Part shown: positions 4,543 through 46,328 of the stretch, one piece after another
Layout of the letters: each line of letters starts with the position of its first letter
How positions within the stretch are numbered: position 1 is the first letter of the stretch
Source: Candidatus Buchananbacteria bacterium
Lineage (GTDB): Bacteria > Patescibacteriota > Patescibacteriia > 2-01-FULL-39-33
Direction: 5' to 3'
DNA: 64,000 nucleotides
Assembly: GCA_041666945.1 (NCBI GenBank)
Contig: JBAYFY010000002.1
Span: 701 to 64,700 of the forward strand
Notes under the pieces: model-generated
Told to the model about the DNA's origin: nothing
The model's database searches: none
Seen by the model: the letters and a program-made list of their open reading frames with translations, nothing else
Program-made: the position numbers and the translations under genes

Positions 4543-5912
4543 ACTTAACACAAATAAAAAAAATCCATTTTATCGGCATCGGCGGCATTGGCATTTCGGC
4601 CGCGGCGCGTTTGGCGCGCAATCGGGGGATGAACGTTTCCGGCAGTGACGCGCAAGAGAGCGAGACAGTCGCTGATTTGAGGTCGCAAGGATTTATCGTT
4701 GCCGTACCGCAAGCGGCTGCCAATGTCCCCGAAGACGCGGATTTGGTTGTTTATACGGTAGCTGTTACCGCGGATAATCCGGAAAGGGCGCGAGCGCAAG
4801 AATTAAAAATAGAGCAGCTGACCTATCCGCAGTTTCTGGGCCTGTTAATGTCAGGCAAATTTGGCATCGGCGTTTCCGGCACTAACGGCAAAACCACCAC
4901 TACCGCCATGATCGCCAAAATTTTAATTGATGCGAGTAAGGATCCGAGCGTGGTTTTGGGATCCAAGGCGGAATTTTTATCCGACAATGCGCGATCGGGC
5001 CAGAGCGAATACTTTGTGTTTGAAGGCGACGAGTACCGCCGGGCCTTCGCTAATTATCATCCCAAGATAGCGGCCGTTACTTATATTGGCGAGGATCATC
5101 TGGATTATTACAAGGATTTGGCCGAAATAAAATCGGCGTTTAAGGATTATCTTCTGCGGGTGCCGGCCGAAGGTTACGCGGTATTAAATGCCGACGATCC
5201 CAATTCAATGGAACTCGCGCCGGAACTTAAAGCGAATAAAGTTACTTTTGGCCTCACTGAAGAAGCTGACTATATGGCTTCGGAAATATACTGTGAAGAT
5301 GGCCGGCAATTTTTTACGGTTAATTCCGGTGATGGCTTAAGCCAAAAATTAAGCATTCAGTTGCCGGGGCGCTACAATATTTACAATGCCTTATGCGCCG
5401 TCGCTGTTTGTCGGGTATTGGATATTGCTTGGCCGAAGATTATTGAATCCGTAGCTGATTTTACCGGCACCTGGCGGCGGTTTGAACGGCTGGGGCAACT
5501 GGGCCAAGCCGAAGTGATTGCTGATTATGCCCATACGCCCGATGCTGTCGCTCAAGTTATCGGCGCGACCAAGGAATTCTATCCCGGCAAAAAGATACTG
5601 ACCGTGTTTCAGCCCCACCAATACTCCCGAACAAAAAATTTGTTCAATAAATTCGTCACGGCTTTCGGTTCGGCCGAGCAGGTGATCATTCCTGACATTT
5701 TTTATGTGGCGGGGCGGGAGAAGCCCGAGGATTTTGATGTTGACTCTAAAATCTTGGCCGAGGCAGTTGCCGGGCAAGGCGTTAAAGCGGTCTATGGCGG
5801 CACATTATCGGCAAGCGAAGAGCTGGTTAAAAAAATGGCAAAAGATTTTGATATAGTTTTGGTTTTAGGCGCCGGTGATGTTTATGAATTGGCGAAAAAT
5901 TTGATTAAATGA
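4539..5912 (+). CDS. murC: UDP-N-acetylmuramate--L-alanine ligase
   Basis: N-terminal IHFIGIGGIGISA dinucleotide-fold motif, GTNGKTTTT P-loop and DYAHTP motif. Confidence 0.9.
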   Translation: MNLTQIKKIHFIGIGGIGISAAARLARNRGMNVSGSDAQESETVADLRSQGFIVAVPQAAANVPEDADLVVYTVAVTADNPERARAQELKIEQLTYPQFLGLLMSGKFGIGVSGTNGKTTTTAMIAKILIDASKDPSVVLGSKAEFLSDNARSGQSEYFVFEGDEYRRAFANYHPKIAAVTYIGEDHLDYYKDLAEIKSAFKDYLLRVPAEGYAVLNADDPNSMELAPELKANKVTFGLTEEADYMASEIYCEDGRQFFTVNSGDGLSQKLSIQLPGRYNIYNALCAVAVCRVLDIAWPKIIESVADFTGTWRRFERLGQLGQAEVIADYAHTPDAVAQVIGATKEFYPGKKILTVFQPHQYSRTKNLFNKFVTAFGSAEQVIIPDIFYVAGREKPEDFDVDSKILAEAVAGQGVKAVYGGTLSASEELVKKMAKDFDIVLVLGAGDVYELAKNLIK

Positions 5913-29539: not shown

Positions 29540-29613
29540 TCAGCGGTAGCTCAACGGTAGAGCAACCGGCTGTTAACCGGTAGGTTACTGGTTCGAATCC
29601 AGTCCGCTGAGCC
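29540..29613 (+). tRNA. tRNA-Asn (anticodon GUU)
   Basis: Cloverleaf folded by hand. Acceptor TCAGCGG/CCGCTGA, D stem GCTC/GAGC, anticodon stem ACCGG/CCGGT with loop CTGTTAA, T stem ACTGG/CCAGT with TTCGAAT loop, discriminator G followed by CC. Confidence 0.85.
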
Positions 29614-29759
29614 TATAACTCGTTTTACGATTTTCGCCTCCCATGCGGAGGGAGAGCTTATAACTCGTTTAATTAAAATATCCGTCTTTATGGCGAATAT
29701 TTTAATTATGTAAAATAGATTAAGCCGTTTGAAAATTTGGCATAAAATAAACGAAGGGA

Positions 29760-30008: not shown

Positions 30009-30251
30009 GGGGATTATAATAGTTGCGTCGCCGTGAGTGGTGACGCTTTTTTTTTATTTAAAACGTAAGGTTTGACTGAATCCGGACGGGTCAGAAACGA
30101 GACAACTTTTGTTACGTAGTATGTTACGTAACAAGAAATGTGTTGTCAAATAATTTTTATATATTTACCCGCTCTCCCGTGTGCGTAAACTGCACCCTCT
30201 TGATAATTATTCTAACTTTGAATATTCTTATATTGAATATATCATAAAGGT

Positions 30252-30473
30252 ATGCCAAAGACAATACATACAGACGAATATCAAAGAATTACCGAACGGC
30301 TCAAACAAGCCAGGGTTGATGCTGATTTCACACAAGAAGAAGTGGCTAAAAGAATTAAAAAGCCCCAATCTTATGTTTCTAAAATTGAGGCAGGGGAGCA
30401 GAGGATTGATATTATTGAACTTAAAGTATTTGCTAAACTTTACAAAAAGGAAGTTGATTATTTTATTCAATAG
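30252..30473 (+). CDS. XRE-family HTH regulator, likely R-M controller (C) protein
   Basis: 73 aa. LKQARVDADFTQEEVAKRIKKPQSYVSKIEAGEQ is a canonical Cro/C1 HTH. Sits 4 nt upstream of the next ORF and is convergent with the MTase. Confidence 0.8.
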   Translation: MPKTIHTDEYQRITERLKQARVDADFTQEEVAKRIKKPQSYVSKIEAGEQRIDIIELKVFAKLYKKEVDYFIQ

Positions 30474-30477
30474 ATAT

Positions 30478-31449
30478 ATGGAAAGGATAAATTATAAGGA
30501 ATTAATAGAGAAGTATCCTTGGGTTGTGGAAAAAGATCATGATTGTATATTGAGCCCAGACAGCGACGGTTTGCTGTGCGGTCTTTTTATGGCACATTAT
30601 TTGAATTGGAAAATAAGGGGATATTACGACGGAAAGGTATTAATTGTTGATAAAGGTGTAGATTTGCGTGAGTGTGTATTTTTGGATATGGAGATTTTTC
30701 GTAAAGAAATTAGAAGTGTGGGCCATCATATGGTGCTTTATAATAAAAATAAAAAACCGGAATCCTGGCATAATTTTGAGAATTGTGTTCAGCCGAATAA
30801 TTTACGTGATTATGATGGCGCCAAAAACTTCCCTTTAAAATATCCGTTAGCGACAATTCATTTATTGATTGGTATATTAAATAGTAAATTTTCAATTGAT
30901 ATTTCTGAATCGGCTATTTGTCCCTTATTGTATACAGATGGAGTTTTTAAAAATTTATTTGGATATCCGGAAAATTGTTTGGATTGGCTGAATTATCTTG
31001 GGGCAAACAATAAAGAAACAGCATTACATCAGATATTTCATAATGATTATTACTCCATTCATGATTTAATGGACGCTTTGAAGGATTTTTTTGAAAAAAT
31101 ATCTAATATTGGTGAAGGTAAAAGGGGTAATGATAAAATTAAAATATCAAATACTAAGAGCGAATTGGTAAATTTAGAAAAATCAGAGGATTGTTATTTT
31201 ATTAATAATGAAGCGAAAATAAAGGCCACAAAGTTTATAATGATATTATCCGAGTTGACGGGTTGGAAATATAAGGAAAATCATTGGTTATGGTCTGGTT
31301 TTAAAGTGATTAAATTCGAAAAATCTAAAATAAAACCAAATAATAAAAATTTTGAATTTTTATTGTCAAAAAATCCGCTGTCTTGGGCTATGACCAGCGG
31401 ATTAGATATAGAATACACTTTAGATCCTGATAATCTTTTATTAAAGTAG
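30478..31449 (+). CDS. Putative type II restriction endonuclease (position-based inference)
   Basis: 324 aa AT-rich ORF between the C-protein and the convergent MTase. No family-level motif recognised. Confidence 0.4.
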   Translation: MERINYKELIEKYPWVVEKDHDCILSPDSDGLLCGLFMAHYLNWKIRGYYDGKVLIVDKGVDLRECVFLDMEIFRKEIRSVGHHMVLYNKNKKPESWHNFENCVQPNNLRDYDGAKNFPLKYPLATIHLLIGILNSKFSIDISESAICPLLYTDGVFKNLFGYPENCLDWLNYLGANNKETALHQIFHNDYYSIHDLMDALKDFFEKISNIGEGKRGNDKIKISNTKSELVNLEKSEDCYFINNEAKIKATKFIMILSELTGWKYKENHWLWSGFKVIKFEKSKIKPNNKNFEFLLSKNPLSWAMTSGLDIEYTLDPDNLLLK

Positions 31450-32934
31450 TTTGTTTTGAAGTGTTTGTCTTTCTTCTTTTATTCGTTTTTTTGCCAACTC
31501 GCAATATTCTTCTGAAATTTCAAAACCAATATAGTTTCGGTCTTGATTGATGGCGGCCAATGCAGTAGTGCCGCTTCCTAGAAATGGGTCAATAACAATC
31601 CCTTTAGGCGGACAAAAACATTGAATAAAATCAACTGGTATTTTATCTGGAAAAGTTGCCGGATGTTGATGTTTTAAACGGGTTCCGTCACCGCAAGTTA
31701 CATAATCCCAAATCGTCCCCCTACATTTCAGAGGATTTATTGTTACTTTATGGGATTGTAATGTTTTGCCGTTCGTTAATCTCGTTGCGCATCCAGTCAT
31801 GGTTTTACCGCCATGTTTTGATGGTATTTTTAAATGATCTTTTTGAAAATATTGCGGTCTCTCTCCCTTCAGAAATATTGGGATATATTCGTGATCGACC
31901 CTGAATCTTTTAGTCCACCAGGCGCCTTCGGCGCCGTGTTTTTTATAAATAACAGTTTCGAATAGTTTAAATCCAATATTATCGCACCAATCAATAATAG
32001 TACGAAATGATGTTAGTGATTTACCAAAGTTTTTGGTTTGATCTTGGATTACCATTATTGCAACTCCTCCGTTTTTCAAAATTCGAAAAATTTCTTTTCC
32101 CGTATCATGCAAATTATAATTGAATCCATTATAGTCCCTTACGCTGTCGTAGGGAGGGGAAGTAACTATTACGTCAATTGAATTGTCTGGTAATCTTTTC
32201 ATTCCTTCAACGCAATCCACACATTGTACCGTGTTAAGAACTTGTTTTAAATTCAATTCCCTGTTTATTTTTTGGTCATAATCATGAGACGTACTATTGT
32301 ATTCAAATGTTATATTTGGTTGCTCTTGTTTGATAATATCAAAAACGACTCCCTGAATATTAAATTTTTGATTTTTGTTTACTATAATCGGGCTAAATTG
32401 CTTATTAGCCGGTTGAAGCCGTATTTGATTTTTTTCTTTATAGTATCTTTTTAATGTCGCCTCAGTGTTATTAATCAACGCAACAACTCGATCTCCATTA
32501 TTAGCGGTTTGTTGATTTTTAACTAAAATAATATCGCCGTTGTTAATGTTTTCATCAATCATGCTATTACCACTAACCTTTAAAGCATAGAAATTACCGT
32601 TAGATGGTAAATTTGACTTAGGTACCGCAATGGTCTCCCTTTCTTCAATTGCTTCAATTGGTTGACCGGCGACGATAGTGCCAAAAAATGGAACCTGAAT
32701 TAAGAGTTCGCTGGAAAAAATATCAATGCTTCTGGCATGGTTCTCTGTTTTGTTTAAAAATCCCTTATCTTTAAGTGCCTCAATGTGTTGATGAACCGTG
32801 CTAACTGATAGTTTAAAATGCTTTCCGATTTCCTCAAGAGAAGGGGAATATCCATTTTTTTTGATGTAATCCTTAGTGTAATTAAGGATTTCTTTTTGTC
32901 TTGGGGTTATCATATTTGACTTTATTTTGAGCAA
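31441..32934 (-). CDS. Fusion: LexA-like repressor (wHTH + S24 autopeptidase) :: beta-class N4/N6 DNA methyltransferase
   Basis: N-terminus matches LexA (PRQKEIL..., GNSM catalytic Ser, TLKRY catalytic Lys). C-terminal part has motif IV VTSPPY before motif I DPFLGSGTT. This is the pfam N6_N4_Mtase order. Confidence 0.8.
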   Translation of the reverse strand: MLKIKSNMITPRQKEILNYTKDYIKKNGYSPSLEEIGKHFKLSVSTVHQHIEALKDKGFLNKTENHARSIDIFSSELLIQVPFFGTIVAGQPIEAIEERETIAVPKSNLPSNGNFYALKVSGNSMIDENINNGDIILVKNQQTANNGDRVVALINNTEATLKRYYKEKNQIRLQPANKQFSPIIVNKNQKFNIQGVVFDIIKQEQPNITFEYNSTSHDYDQKINRELNLKQVLNTVQCVDCVEGMKRLPDNSIDVIVTSPPYDSVRDYNGFNYNLHDTGKEIFRILKNGGVAIMVIQDQTKNFGKSLTSFRTIIDWCDNIGFKLFETVIYKKHGAEGAWWTKRFRVDHEYIPIFLKGERPQYFQKDHLKIPSKHGGKTMTGCATRLTNGKTLQSHKVTINPLKCRGTIWDYVTCGDGTRLKHQHPATFPDKIPVDFIQCFCPPKGIVIDPFLGSGTTALAAINQDRNYIGFEISEEYCELAKKRIKEERQTLQNKLL

Positions 32935-33227
32935 GATTTATTATATAAGTATTATACCGAAAATAAACCGAAAGTAGAAGTTGAGTTATCCACAGCAAAC
33001 ATTGCTAATGTGTTGCATATGATTTTATTAAATGGAATAATTGCCAAAAGTCTATTGGCGCGCTAAAATTGAAGCAAATATGGCCTGTGATATCAAAAAT
33101 CACCGAAAACTCAGAATGATAAGTTAGAAGGTTCTAATAGTTTGAGAACATCAATTAAATAAAAAATACTTTGTTTTAATCACCTTGAAAATAATAAGAT
33201 TTCTTAAAAATAATTGACGATAATAAT

Positions 33228-33578
33228 ATGGATCTTAAAAATTTTACAAAACAAGCCATTTTAGAAATTACCGAGGCCGTTAAAGAAATAAATATTGATA
33301 GAGAGGTTTTATTGGTATCCGGCAAGGATAAGCGAACAATAGAATTTGATGTGGCCGTAACTGTTGAGGAAAATAGAGCTACAACTGGCAGTGGACAGAT
33401 TCAAGTGCTAGGTCTTATTCGGGGAGAGGGCGATATTAAACAAGAAGTTAAAAATGCTACTGTTAGCAGAATTGAATTCGGTGTTTCGATAGCAACAGCA
33501 ACAAAAGCCGAGATTGAAAAGCAACGATTAGAAATCGAAGCGTATAATAGAAGAAATCAAGATTCTAGTTATAAATAA
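33228..33578 (+). CDS. Hypothetical protein, probably co-transcribed with Abi-like gene
   Basis: 116 aa. The following gene starts 18 nt after its stop. Confidence 0.45.
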   Translation: MDLKNFTKQAILEITEAVKEINIDREVLLVSGKDKRTIEFDVAVTVEENRATTGSGQIQVLGLIRGEGDIKQEVKNATVSRIEFGVSIATATKAEIEKQRLEIEAYNRRNQDSSYK

Positions 33579-33596
33579 TAGAATTTATAACTTTTT

Positions 33597-34646
33597 ATGG
33601 AAAGCGAATTAGAGTCTTGGCAGATAACAGATTTTAATTTGAATGACAATCAGCTCAAGATTGACAAGCTTGGTCTTATAAAAATAATTAGAAGTGATGA
33701 TGGTATTTTAACTCTTGTTAGTGACGCAAATTACGGGGTCATAGATCATGAAAAACCCTCACCGGCAAAGTTTGCTAACAATGATTCTATTTTGGGGTTT
33801 ATACTTGATATAGGCATTAGAAGAGAAAAAGTGCTTGCCAGTGGACATGGTTTTTATTTCGGTAGATCAATAATTAGGCCCCAATCCTCAAAAATTATTT
33901 CTCAGAATGATTTCGATGAGGAATTATTTGAAAAAATCAGTGATATCATTAACAGCAAATATCAATCCAATAATAAACAAGAAGAAACGGAGGCAATAAG
34001 ATTGAGGTTTTTATTTGATACATACAATAATGCTCGTCTTTTATTCCCTAATTTTTTATCAGAAAGTTATCTTAACCTATTACGAATTATCGACGCATTA
34101 AGCGTTAAGAGGCACGCTGAAAGTTTCGCTCTATTCGCAGCAATGATTTCCTCAGATTTAAATGATGCAATTTATAATAAAGTAAATATTATAGAGGGAT
34201 ATAAGGATAGAATAGATTATGCGGCTGATTTATTTAAAAATTTAATGGAGAAAAAAAATATTGAGAGATCCTGTAAAGCTGAAATGGGTAAATTAAATGA
34301 TAAAGGAAAGTTTATTTTTTCTTGTTTCTATGTTGCTTACCAGTACAGAAACAAATTTGTTCATCTCGGCTTCCCATTTCCAGACACCGTTAAGAATTCT
34401 TATGGCTTAAAGGATGGCTCCGGTACTGCATTTTTAAATCCAGCGCTTGGTATTTATTGGCGAAAAGTTTATAGGCCGAATGGAATCGAAGATGGCGATT
34501 TAATAGACATACATCAATTTATGCCCGACGAAGAAGAGGCGCAAAAATTTAAAGACGAATATTTTAAGCTTCTGCCAACTTGGCATTTTGTAAAACAACT
34601 AACTAGAGAGGCGTTACGGAAAAAAATTATTAACGAATCTAAATAA
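33597..34646 (+). CDS. Abi_2 / AbiD-AbiF-like abortive-infection protein (HEPN Rx4H)
   Basis: 349 aa. YQYRNKFVHLG matches the HEPN R-x4-H motif typical of Abi_2. Size and AT-rich context fit. Confidence 0.55.
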   Translation: MESELESWQITDFNLNDNQLKIDKLGLIKIIRSDDGILTLVSDANYGVIDHEKPSPAKFANNDSILGFILDIGIRREKVLASGHGFYFGRSIIRPQSSKIISQNDFDEELFEKISDIINSKYQSNNKQEETEAIRLRFLFDTYNNARLLFPNFLSESYLNLLRIIDALSVKRHAESFALFAAMISSDLNDAIYNKVNIIEGYKDRIDYAADLFKNLMEKKNIERSCKAEMGKLNDKGKFIFSCFYVAYQYRNKFVHLGFPFPDTVKNSYGLKDGSGTAFLNPALGIYWRKVYRPNGIEDGDLIDIHQFMPDEEEAQKFKDEYFKLLPTWHFVKQLTREALRKKIINESK

Positions 34647-34795
34647 AATTATATGGAAAAATATATTCGCAAAGTAACTCATGCCGGCAAAATAATCCTG
34701 TCAATCGTTATCCCGACAGAAATCGTGGATGAATTAAAGATAAAAGAAAAGCAGAAATTGACCATAACGACAAAATGCAAGAGTATTATTAAAGA

Positions 34796-35476
34796 TTGGA
34801 AATAGTTTTAATTATGATTCCAAAACAAGAAAAAATATATAATGAATTAGGTAAACAATTAGTTAATTGTAATTTTAACTGTTCCGGTATTAATAATAAT
34901 AAAAAGTTCGGGTATTTTCCTCGGCTATTATTTATAGAAAAAGGAAATGATAATGGAAAAGGAGCAATTATTATCGGATTAAATCCAGGCAAGTGTGGTG
35001 AATCAGAACGAAAGTGGGTTAGTAAAAATCAAGATTATTGGGTTAATCAAAAAGATTATTATAGTAATAATTTATTAAAGTGGAAGTATTTTCGTCGCGT
35101 TAAGGAGCTATTAAATTTACTTGGTTATCAAGGTGATATCTTATGGACAAATTTAGTAAAATGTGAGTGCATCGGTAGTAACGGAGATTTACCGATACAA
35201 ACCATAAGGACATGTGTAAACAAATTTTTAAAGAACGAAATTGATAGTTTATTGCCTCAGTGTGATATATTTGCCATAGGTAACCAATCTTTTGGGATTA
35301 GTTCGGTGGCATTTCCTAATAATTTTGTAATTGGGTTGCCCCATTCATCTGGTCCGTATGCTTCAACTAAATTTTTACGATTGTTAGAAAAAATTAGAAA
35401 AGACAAAAAAAAGTATTTAAACATAATTAATAAGAAAGGGGATAATAATAATCAGATTTTAGCAATAAAATTATAA
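34796..35476 (+). CDS. Uracil-DNA glycosylase superfamily-like protein (MUG/TDG-like motifs)
   Basis: GAIIIGLNPGKCGE (motif A, compare the GINPG of Mug) and GLPHSSGPY (motif B, compare NPSGLS). Confidence 0.5.
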   Translation: MEIVLIMIPKQEKIYNELGKQLVNCNFNCSGINNNKKFGYFPRLLFIEKGNDNGKGAIIIGLNPGKCGESERKWVSKNQDYWVNQKDYYSNNLLKWKYFRRVKELLNLLGYQGDILWTNLVKCECIGSNGDLPIQTIRTCVNKFLKNEIDSLLPQCDIFAIGNQSFGISSVAFPNNFVIGLPHSSGPYASTKFLRLLEKIRKDKKKYLNIINKKGDNNNQILAIKL

Positions 35477-35488
35477 AATGGTAATACT

Positions 35489-36238
35489 ATGAAAGTGGGT
35501 AGGAATGATCAATGTCCCTGTGGTAGCGGTCGAAAATATAAGCATTGCTATCAGGATCATGATAGCGGTTGTTTACAAAAATTAAAGGATGATAGAATTA
35601 AAATGTTAGCAGAACATAATGACCGTGAAAAAAAAGTATTTCGTTTTTTTAATGAAGTAATAGAAGAAACAAATATTATTTTATTAAAATCAGAAGATGG
35701 TCATGATAAGATTCAGTCACGAATACAAATGATTATTATTTTTAGTTTGGTCGACATGTTGGGCGGTTATTGGTATACGTTTCTCGGGCAGAATGGTAAA
35801 ACATTAGAGCGTCCAAAAAATTGGTACAACAAATACTGTGCTACTGAAGAGAATATACATTATAAAGATTTTTGGACGGAATTAAATGTTGAACGCTTGT
35901 ATGTTTTTAGAAATTCCCTCGTTCATTTTTTTGGATTAGGTGAAAAATACGATAATATATACATTTCACTCGCATCAAATAATTTGCCAGATAAAACGCA
36001 TAAAAATTGGCAAGAAGAATTTTCAAAAAAAGGAGACAAGACGATTATTATTAGACCAGAAGATTTTTATAATTTAATAAAAGAGGGTGGCGTATTGATG
36101 CTAAAAGAATGGGGGAATATGATTAAGCAAGCACAAACCAATAGAGATAAAGAGTGTTATTATATTAATGGCATAGAACGAGTCTGGGATAAGATTAGAA
36201 AAGAAGGGGCTGTAAGAATTCCAAGTAATATTAAATAA
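35489..36238 (+). CDS. SEC-C zinc motif + HEPN-like (Rx4H) domain protein
   Basis: N-terminal GRNDQCPCGSGRKYKHCY is near-identical in pattern to the SecA C-terminus. Later FRNSLVHFFGLGE is an Rx4H motif. Confidence 0.6.
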   Translation: MKVGRNDQCPCGSGRKYKHCYQDHDSGCLQKLKDDRIKMLAEHNDREKKVFRFFNEVIEETNIILLKSEDGHDKIQSRIQMIIIFSLVDMLGGYWYTFLGQNGKTLERPKNWYNKYCATEENIHYKDFWTELNVERLYVFRNSLVHFFGLGEKYDNIYISLASNNLPDKTHKNWQEEFSKKGDKTIIIRPEDFYNLIKEGGVLMLKEWGNMIKQAQTNRDKECYYINGIERVWDKIRKEGAVRIPSNIK

Positions 36239-36504
36239 TTTTAATAATTAGTTATAATTAGGCCGTCGCCGTCTGCCTGCCGGTAGGCAGGGCTTCAAAA
36301 ATCGTCATTGGGAAATTTTTGAAAAAAATTTCTTATTTTCTTAAGGAGGGAGGGCTTATAGCTTGTTTTACGCATCTCATCGCCACCTCCACAGGTGGCG
36401 ATTTGCGTTTCTACTAATATTTTTCAGCTTTCTTTTAATTTCACCACCGCTTCCCGCGAGAGCAAGGGGTGGCAAAGTTAGTAATTACCCATTTAATATA
36501 AAAA

Positions 36505-45746: not shown

Positions 45747-46328
45747 ATGAAAAAAGAATATCCACCCGGTCAAGAAATTCAAGAAAAAATTCCTAAGAAG
45801 GAAGTCGCTTTCGCCTTTATCAAACCGGATTTTTTTGCCGATCTGCCGACTATAGAAGAAATTATCAGGGATCATGGTTTAGAAATAATTTATCGCGATC
45901 AAATCAGATTGTCGCCCCAAACCGTTGATTTGATTTATCAGGAAGTGAAAAACGAACATTTTTTTGAAGCCATGAAGGATTACCTTATTTCCCATGACGT
46001 TGTTGTTATGTTAGTTGGCGGCGAAGGGGTTGAGGCGCAGAGGGTTTTGTTGAGTCTCAAAAAAGACCAGGGCAAAGACGGAGTAATCCGTGAGCGGCTA
46101 CAAAAACATCCGCAAGTTTCCGGTGAAGAATTAGCTCTCTGGGAAAGCGGCCAGCATCCCCGACAAAATGAATTGTCAGTTGTCTTAACGCAAAAGAATG
46201 TTTTACATACAGCCGATAACGCGGAAGAAGCTTTGGCCGGTTTAAAAGCCATTTTGGGTCCTAAGTTCGAAATATTGCAAAAACGCGGCAATCTGCCGGC
46301 CGAGTTATGGGATATTTTTAATGAATAA
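45747..46328 (+). CDS. Nucleoside diphosphate kinase-like protein (divergent)
   Basis: FAFIKPDF and NVLHTAD align to the NDK motifs IKPDG and NIIHGSD. Start chosen at the internal ATG. Confidence 0.45.
   Translation: MKKEYPPGQEIQEKIPKKEVAFAFIKPDFFADLPTIEEIIRDHGLEIIYRDQIRLSPQTVDLIYQEVKNEHFFEAMKDYLISHDVVVMLVGGEGVEAQRVLLSLKKDQGKDGVIRERLQKHPQVSGEELALWESGQHPRQNELSVVLTQKNVLHTADNAEEALAGLKAILGPKFEILQKRGNLPAELWDIFNE

Follow-up and report, generated by a model that had tools for sequence, protein, structure and literature searches.

How restriction-modification (R-M) systems spare their own host is a long-standing question, since the risk peaks after DNA damage, repair synthesis, and entry into a new cell. 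Known safeguards are C proteins, DNA methyltransferases (MTases) with a helix-turn-helix (HTH) domain, antisense RNAs, and the ClpXP-dependent restriction alleviation of type I systems. In M.SsoII, M.Ecl18kI, M.MspI, M.EcoRII, and M.ScrFIA, the N-terminal HTH binds the promoter of the MTase gene (M) and leads to autorepression; the HTHs of this kind are about 70 amino acids (aa) long, are attached to C5 MTases, and recognize palindromic operators, and that of SsoII also stimulates transcription of the restriction gene (R). LexA recognizes a direct repeat, GTTC-N7-GTTC, in Alphaproteobacteria. Here, we analyzed a 64,000-nucleotide (nt) stretch of a Candidatus Buchananbacteria genome (assembly GCA_041666945.1, contig JBAYFY010000002.1, positions 701 to 64,700; referred to as the window), in which one gene of a putative R-M cassette joins a complete LexA unit to an MTase.

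A preliminary description of this DNA had placed the fusion at 31441-32934. These coordinates are right, but the strand, which it left unstated, is the minus strand. The region is a single open reading frame (ORF) of 497 codons with no internal stops that opens with TTG at 32934; the likely start is the ATG at 32913 (MITPRQK...), so that the gene would span 31441-32913 and code for 490 aa. This product is identical to the NCBI model for the same metagenome-assembled genome, which is named "transcriptional repressor LexA." From the N terminus, the protein consists of a LexA winged HTH (wHTH), an S24 autopeptidase, a disordered linker, and a beta-class N4/N6 DNA MTase. All three domains named in the preliminary description were recovered by Pfam (positions in the 497-aa numbering unless stated otherwise): LexA_DNA_bind (PF01726) at aa 9-68 (57.5 bits against a cutoff of 23.7, E = 1e-15; 32731-32910, minus strand), Peptidase_S24 (PF00717) at aa 82-198 (109 bits, E = 1e-31; 32341-32691, minus strand), and N6_N4_Mtase (PF01555) at aa 253-483 (133 bits, E = 2.5e-38, covering the full length of the model; 31486-32178, minus strand). 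The NCBIfam lexA equivalog TIGR00498 matched aa 9-203 with 179.4 bits, above its cutoff of 110.95. The best sequence matches in the PDB were LexA structures (3k2z, E = 5e-34) and, for the C-terminal half, DNA MTases; the alignment with solved LexA structures covers residues 8-202 in full.

The motifs quoted beforehand were also located in the protein. The S24 part contains the Ala-Gly scissile bond (IVA|GQP, 32659-32676), the catalytic Ser (GNSM, 32560-32571), and the catalytic Lys (TLKRY, 32443-32457), while in the MTase TSPPY (motif IV, aa 251-255 of the 490-aa protein; 32149-32163) precedes DPFLGSGTT (motif I, aa 442-450; 31564-31590), which is the beta-class order. PADLOC labels this part MTase_II/oMTase. 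Its automatic name at JGI is adenine-specific; N4-cytosine MTases typically have Ser in motif IV (SPPY). In the AlphaFold (AF2) model of the fusion (mean predicted local distance difference test [pLDDT] of 69.7), the DNA-binding domain, the S24 domain, and the MTase core are folded, the target-recognition region of the core is ill-defined, and S24 is separated from the MTase by a linker of some 20 disordered residues (198-216 in the 490-aa numbering, pLDDT 31-48; 32251-32331, minus strand). The sequence of the linker is poorly conserved in the family alignment but its length is conserved, and S24 and MTase would be modular because this linker stands between them.

The N-terminal part is thus a LexA, with wHTH, Ala-Gly site, Ser/Lys dyad, and equivalog score, and at the sequence level the C-terminal part belongs to the beta-class N4/N6 MTases, as the preliminary description had maintained. 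Like described LexAs (TIGR00498, MEROPS S24), it also has a predicted operator at its own promoter in the form of a direct repeat. It differs from them in being covalently joined to an MTase within an apparently mobile R-M cassette and in having its box only at its own promoter in the DNA examined. A stand-alone LexA of about 200 aa with a DNA repair regulon is not what we found, since the protein has 490 aa, is fused to an MTase, and has a single box in 64 kb.

We retrieved at least 160 proteins of at least 400 aa that are LexA-MTase fusions, nearly all from Patescibacteria (candidate phyla radiation [CPR]). The design had been called unusual, which fits the literature but not nature, where it forms a large patescibacterial family. 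In a search of 5.8 billion proteins, 120 of 120 among the matches listed share the three domains (62-100% identical, 478-498 aa), and the named sources among them are Buchanan-, Falkow-, Portnoy-, and Paceibacteria and Omnitrophica. An exhaustive search of representatives at 50% identity revealed many proteins of 430-841 aa that align solely through the N-terminal LexA module. The module, always wHTH plus S24, is also found on MethyltransfD12, N6_Mtase/Eco57I (with or without TaqI_C), and C-5 DNA_methylase (Pfam), i.e., it is carried by four MTase families, N6_N4_Mtase included. The residues equivalent to A84, G85, S119, M120, T154, and K156 of Escherichia coli LexA are unchanged in 160/160 fusions, a set that spans representatives merely 36-50% identical and the other MTase families. 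In a rough neighbor-joining tree, computed with no support values, the fused modules of all MTase classes group with a few free LexAs, other free LexAs forming a basal grade apart from them. The fusion was absent from 50,697 phage and 72,556 plasmid records, in which the matches were to separate LexAs or MTases only.

The same continuous frame in so many proteins bears on the simplest alternative, in which a lexA and an MTase gene were joined artificially by a frameshift in sequencing or assembly. An unfused arrangement does occur in a few loci; however, at least 160 proteins, drawn from many independent assemblies, have the uninterrupted frame and keep the length of the linker, and we give an artefact practically no chance. 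This is a single gene and not a frameshifted pair.

We aligned the 130 nt upstream of the fusion genes and found a family consensus operator, the direct repeat [T/G]TTCnnT-N4-[T/G]TTCnnT with a period of 11 bp. In the window, the predicted operator is TTTCGGT-ttat-TTTCGGT (TTTCGGTttatTTTCGGT; 32956-32973, minus strand). Located between -35 and -10, the repeat extends into TATAAT, the window having TTTCGGTttatTTTCGGT followed by ATAAT, so that the 3' repeat overlaps the -10 box (TATAAT, 32951-32956, minus strand); most related loci have the same layout, and in some the repeat is inverted in orientation and lies just after the -10 box. The direct repeat was detected in 45/47 LexA-bearing loci, the two exceptions being a GCTCGGG variant (L021) and a palindrome (L043). 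None of 32 LexA-less promoters has it, the single match there being an AT-rich chance match 108 nt upstream. In the palindromic case, an Omnitrophota fusion, GGTGTCAttGACACC and a third, upstream copy of TGACACC replace the direct repeat (about 4940-4990 of that locus), which suggests that operator symmetry switched in this lineage.

The three variable bases are identical in both repeats of one locus and between loci track the recognition helix of the wHTH (SVSTVHQHIEAL in the window, 32773-32808). CGGT corresponds to S-T-[IV]-H-Q-H, CGGG to x-E-H/R, CTAT and CGAT to S-T-A-H-[FYH]-[HY], and CTAG to D-F-Y; the variable helix residues align with E44/E45 of E. coli LexA. This code held in six loci checked later. 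Two free LexAs (L085 and L089) combine HQH with CGGT, a fusion of the DNA-binding domain alone (L057) fits too, and further fusions have HFH with CTAT (D12 MTase, L090), HQH with CGGT (C5, L091), and HYH with CGAT (N6_Mtase/TaqI, L092). A natural recognition-helix/operator code is thereby supplied for a LexA lineage that binds direct repeats. Recognition of direct repeats by LexA has been reported for several lineages, and a study of Patescibacteria is cited among them (PMC7739468).

By comparison among loci, the promoter of the fusion gene carries a LexA-type operator, and autoregulation is predicted. An N-terminal DNA-binding domain on an MTase, a predicted operator at the M promoter, and apparent autorepression are what the locus shares with the SsoII type. 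In contrast to the SsoII type, the domain amounts to an entire LexA (about 200 aa) that includes a protease domain of the self-cleaving type, the operator is a direct repeat, and four MTase families are involved. It could be argued that the LexA unit is a dimeric autorepressor and nothing else, S24 serving merely to dimerize and to place two wHTHs on the repeats, with no cleavage upon damage, so that the fusion would be an elaborate HTH-MTase of the SsoII type. Autoregulation is the sole step with direct comparative support, some fusions consist of the DNA-binding domain alone and have a like operator, and other N-terminal HTHs exist, e.g., the MerR/Xis-like one of L047. However, the Ala-Gly site, Ser, and Lys do not vary among the 160 fusions, and pure dimerization would not fix all of them; non-cleaving LexA relatives, such as that of Synechocystis, have lost the cleavage residues. 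We therefore regard this explanation as unlikely.

GC is low (30-33% against about 46% in the genome) in the roughly 6 kb that contain the fusion gene, just downstream of a tRNA-Asn gene. The 3' end of the fusion gene overlaps by 9 nt that of a convergent gene in the position of a restriction enzyme (30478-31449, plus strand), coding for a protein of 323 aa, which in turn is preceded by a C-protein-like gene of the XRE HTH family (73 aa; 30252-30473, plus strand; Pfam HTH_3, PADLOC Control_protein) with the candidate C-boxes TATTCTAACTTTGAATAT and ATATTCTTATATTGAATA upstream (30208-30239, plus strand). We compared 84 loci, 80 from one genome per GTDB species and four from assemblies. The 323-aa partner is convergent with and immediately downstream of the MTase gene in nearly all of them, and the C gene is present in about one third. 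The cassette appears to be a mobile, type II-like R-M system, with a C gene, an "R" partner, and a convergent M.

The N terminus of the MTase varies among these loci. The full LexA-MTase state was found in 46-48 of them, from Patescibacteria classes plus single Omnitrophota and Auribacterota bins. About 26 loci have an MTase with no N-terminal domain, with the same partner and a catalytic part 66-83% identical, in Bacteroidota, Planctomycetota, WOR-3, Cloacimonadota, Oligoflexia, Kazan, Berkelbacteria, and DPANN archaea. The LexA DNA-binding domain alone is fused to the MTase in four cases (L057, L071, L078, and L080), other N termini are the MerR/Xis-like HTH already mentioned and a 150-aa domain with no assignment in Pirellulales, and in four loci (L051-53 and L060) a separate 205-aa HTH+S24 gene ends 25 nt before the MTase gene. 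Since fused, split, and absent states exist, the LexA module is an add-on to a pre-existing M/R cassette, with or without C, and in our reading the MTase gained it in Patescibacteria; such a set of states is the classic signature of a functional partnership.

The partner is 53-58% identical between loci and has 1,147 relatives (E ≤ 0.001); in the best 120 of the 1,147 every named one is "hypothetical" and none has a Pfam domain. The protein itself gave no match in Pfam, PADLOC, or a PDB profile search. Only structure comparison of its AlphaFold model (pLDDT 90.8, predicted template modeling score 0.92) provided a lead, a DHH/RecJ-like phosphoesterase fold. D28, D30, D70, and H84 are invariant, H83 being invariant only in a 4-sequence alignment, in the pattern DxD, D, HH. 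We assign this fold with moderate confidence, and the position of the gene suggests a nuclease. To our knowledge, DHH is not among the established folds of restriction enzymes (PD-(D/E)xK, HNH, GIY-YIG, PLD, and half-pipe), and no DHH restriction enzyme is described in the searchable literature, outside of which most subscription journals lie. If true, R-M systems would gain a new class of enzyme, a restriction nuclease with the DHH fold. A large uncharacterized family, apparently of DHH fold, is flagged at the restriction-enzyme position.

The C genes keep their own conserved palindromic boxes whether or not the locus has LexA. A search of 45 loci (about 400 kb), the R/C promoters among the sequences covered, gave no systematic second LexA box, only scattered chance matches with two mismatches. 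In the 64 kb of the window, the operator is the sole perfect box, and with 2-3 mismatches allowed, 14 matches stand against 12.6 expected by chance. A direct effect of the LexA part on the expression of R, as implied in the preliminary description, finds no support, the operator being at the M promoter only and the C/R promoter having C-boxes of its own. The small XRE-HTH gene, the paired palindromic boxes, and their place upstream of R with M convergent resemble the C-protein R-M systems PvuII, Esp1396I, and AhdI; however, here the C circuit would be half of the control, M being under its own LexA circuit, and the fold in the R position is DHH/RecJ-like. The arrangement also departs from SsoII, whose operator governs a divergent R promoter, while here M and R converge and neither R nor C has a box nearby.

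The private character of the box speaks to another reading, according to which the protein regulates the SOS response of the host in general, or competes for the SOS boxes of the host, and bears its MTase incidentally; it might bring methylation to SOS promoters or tie the SOS control of the host to retention of the cassette. It passes the LexA equivalog cutoff, its operator is of the type found with free LexAs of the same clade, and the 64-kb window has no other lexA. Against this stand the low-GC island, the coinheritance with the R partner and the LexA-less orthologs, the one box in 64 kb, at its own promoter, with no other among related loci totaling about 400 kb, an operator specificity that diversifies between cassettes as in insulated private circuits, and the separation of the fused modules from the main group of free LexAs in the rough tree. 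We consider this role very improbable.

Considering all of the above, we favor, with a confidence somewhat above even, a self-repressing MTase in which self-cleavage induced by damage would lift the repression and raise methylation relative to restriction. In the first step, which has comparative support, the LexA wHTH would bind the two TTTCGGT repeats over the -10 box, so that the MTase, probably dimerized through its S24 domains, keeps down its own production. In the second, DNA damage, one source of which could be the nuclease of the cassette cutting undermethylated host DNA, would lead to RecA filaments on single-stranded DNA. S24, which presumably still cleaves on contact with activated RecA because the scissile bond and the dyad are strictly conserved, would then cut the Ala-Gly bond and free the 82-residue DNA-binding domain. 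The freed domain would end in ...GTIAA in the family consensus and in ...GTIVA in the window, and the ...IAA end of most family members resembles the latent ClpX signal of E. coli LexA, whose fragment 1-84 ends in VAA, which becomes a signal for ClpX. In the third step, new MTase would be made and the released S24-MTase part would probably remain active, the resulting rise of methylation over restriction acting as a built-in restriction alleviation, or feedback against autoimmunity, with R left under the separate, ancestral C-protein circuit. The benefit would come when repair or recombination leaves unmodified sites or when the nuclease begins to cut its own host.

The coupling to damage is strengthened because the cleavage residues are invariant in all 160 fusions, the operator lies in the promoter of the gene itself, and the module recurs in four MTase families. 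Several points weigh against it. Fusions with the DNA-binding domain alone keep the repeat operator, and by this comparison autoregulation would be independent of S24. Most of the 160 fusions are 60-85% identical to one another, a fairly young, related group, so that catalytic conservation could partly reflect kinship, and the counts of helix/box covariation ignore shared ancestry, being made with no correction for phylogeny. Neither recA nor a second, housekeeping lexA was found within the 64-kb window. Cleavage itself, its dependence on RecA, and the fate of the MTase afterward, all of which we infer, are the chief uncertainties.

The fate of the MTase matters because the S24-MTase fragment, if degraded after cleavage, would give the opposite outcome. 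The fusion would then be a suicide or abortive infection switch, in which damage or a phage triggers a cleavage that exposes degradation signals, the S24-MTase part is destroyed or inactivated, methylation lapses, and the stable nuclease persists and kills the cell as in postsegregational killing. An intact cleavage apparatus and an independently controlled R would suit such a switch, both fragments of E. coli LexA are reportedly degraded after cleavage (Neher et al., in 2003), and the closest free LexA heads an operon with a DpnI-type nuclease, i.e., the LexA lineage can sit upstream of a nuclease. However, cleavage would also derepress the M promoter and replenish the MTase, existing methylation stays on the DNA so that killing needs replication, and no degron was identified in the S24-MTase part; we find this scenario quite improbable. 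Self-repression relieved by damage, which we prefer, probably makes the design a link between self-protective methylation and DNA damage.

In the proposed lowering of the restriction/modification ratio upon damage or in the presence of unmodified self sites, the cassette would resemble the restriction alleviation of type I systems. It would differ in being encoded by the cassette and in inducing M through repressor self-cleavage rather than by proteolysis of R; in type I systems, restriction alleviation after DNA damage consists of the degradation of HsdR by ClpXP (PMC4231737). A mobile element with its own RecA-responsive S24 switch, as proposed here, also recalls the S24 repressors of phages and mobile elements (lambda CI, SetR, and the UmuD family), but compared with lambda CI and SetR, the effector is an MTase enzyme fused in cis, and the DNA-binding domain is a LexA wHTH and not of the CI/XRE type.

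The free LexA closest to the fused module (P0163, 60% identical) lies 14 nt upstream of a gene for a methyl-directed endonuclease of the DpnI family in L085 (1125-2551) and L086 (743-2169), an arrangement that is a second kind of coupling between LexA and restriction. Its promoter has the same layout, with TTATCCACA, the -35 box, GTTCGGTaaatGTTCGGT, the -10 box, and TTATCCACA again. In L090 (4001-6309), where the LexA module sits on a D12 (Dam-like) MTase, the convergent ORF codes for an unrelated protein of 179 aa that matches nothing in Pfam, and a C-like XRE-HTH gene (73 aa) comes before this ORF; the C-R/LexA-M layout is the same, with different enzymes.

Another element of the fusion promoters is TGTGGATAAC, the reverse complement of the DnaA-box-like consensus TTATCCACA, located in the window upstream of the promoter (32985-32994, minus strand). 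One or two copies are found at most fusion promoters (L001-L092), an enrichment of about 100-fold (32 copies in 46 promoter windows compared with 14 across 407 kb of flanking DNA), and the promoters of the free lexA genes in L085 and L089 have it too. We rejected it as the LexA operator: it is present in a LexA-less CPR locus (L079) and upstream of a divergent, unfused HTH+S24 gene (L051), and its position and orientation vary. It is a separate element, the direct repeat being the one specific to LexA; DnaA is one possible binder. Most fusion genes have a conserved GTCAA, as (A/T)GTCAA(A/G), 5-12 nt before the start codon (aaaGTCAAatATG in the window, 32914-32925, minus strand), in the place expected for a Shine-Dalgarno sequence; it may be a translational or leader element.

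A long, imperfect inverted repeat (30097-30146), which includes the perfect 12-bp palindrome TGTTACGTAACA and, in tandem, a second copy (TGTTACGTAgtaTGTTACGTAACA), precedes the C gene by some 120 nt; it is specific to the window and is not conserved in other loci. The palindrome TGTTACGTAgtaTGTTACGTAACA (30111-30134) was considered as a C-box and rejected, the C-boxes conserved across loci being the ATATTCCAATTTGGAATAT-type repeats at 30208-30239. The low-GC island as a whole extends over 30050-36300, starting past the tRNA-Asn gene (29540-29613) and a terminator-like hairpin (30025-30046). It also holds unannotated genes (33228-33578, 33597-34646, and 34796-35476), an ORF for a 50-aa MazE/AbrB-like protein (34653-34805), and a gene for a SEC-C-motif protein (35489-36238); the genes beside the R-M cassette are not conserved in other loci. 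We saw no integrase in the island, and a search for boundaries and att sites gave one candidate repeat only: the 3' end of the tRNA-Asn gene with the bases downstream (GAGCCTATAACTCGTTT, 17 nt, 29609-29625) recurs 45 nt further on (29654-29670) with one mismatch and may be the remnant of an integration site. Directly past the island, an ORF of 1,054 aa (36575-39739, minus strand) has coiled-coil-like repeats, (A/E)EQKLxLAKIAD(E/K)AA, in its C-terminal third, and more low-GC stretches (36-39%) at 40001-42000 and 43001-46000 are possibly further acquired DNA.

LexA-MTase fusions have no description in the searchable full-text literature, which is absence of evidence only, since most subscription journals lie outside it; apparently, known modules are combined here in an undescribed regulatory design. 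The breadth of the family and its clean operator code would surprise specialists in R-M regulation or in the SOS response. Hundreds of entries from CPR genomes go by the plain name "LexA" or "adenine-specific methyltransferase" but are something different, which affects reconstructions of SOS regulons. In a broader form of the proposal, which we advance tentatively as possible but short of probable, a portable unit of promoter and LexA would have been added in Patescibacteria to the MTases of many unrelated R-M systems, each sensing host breaks through RecA and self-cleavage and raising methylation, with private operators insulating it from the SOS response of the host and with the partner described here as the first restriction nuclease of the DHH/RecJ fold. 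The idea of a damage-sensing R-M system becomes testable with one protein and one 40-bp promoter. If true, the cassette would encode, in an MTase that doubles as a LexA repressor, a direct wire from the RecA damage signal to the ratio of modification to restriction.

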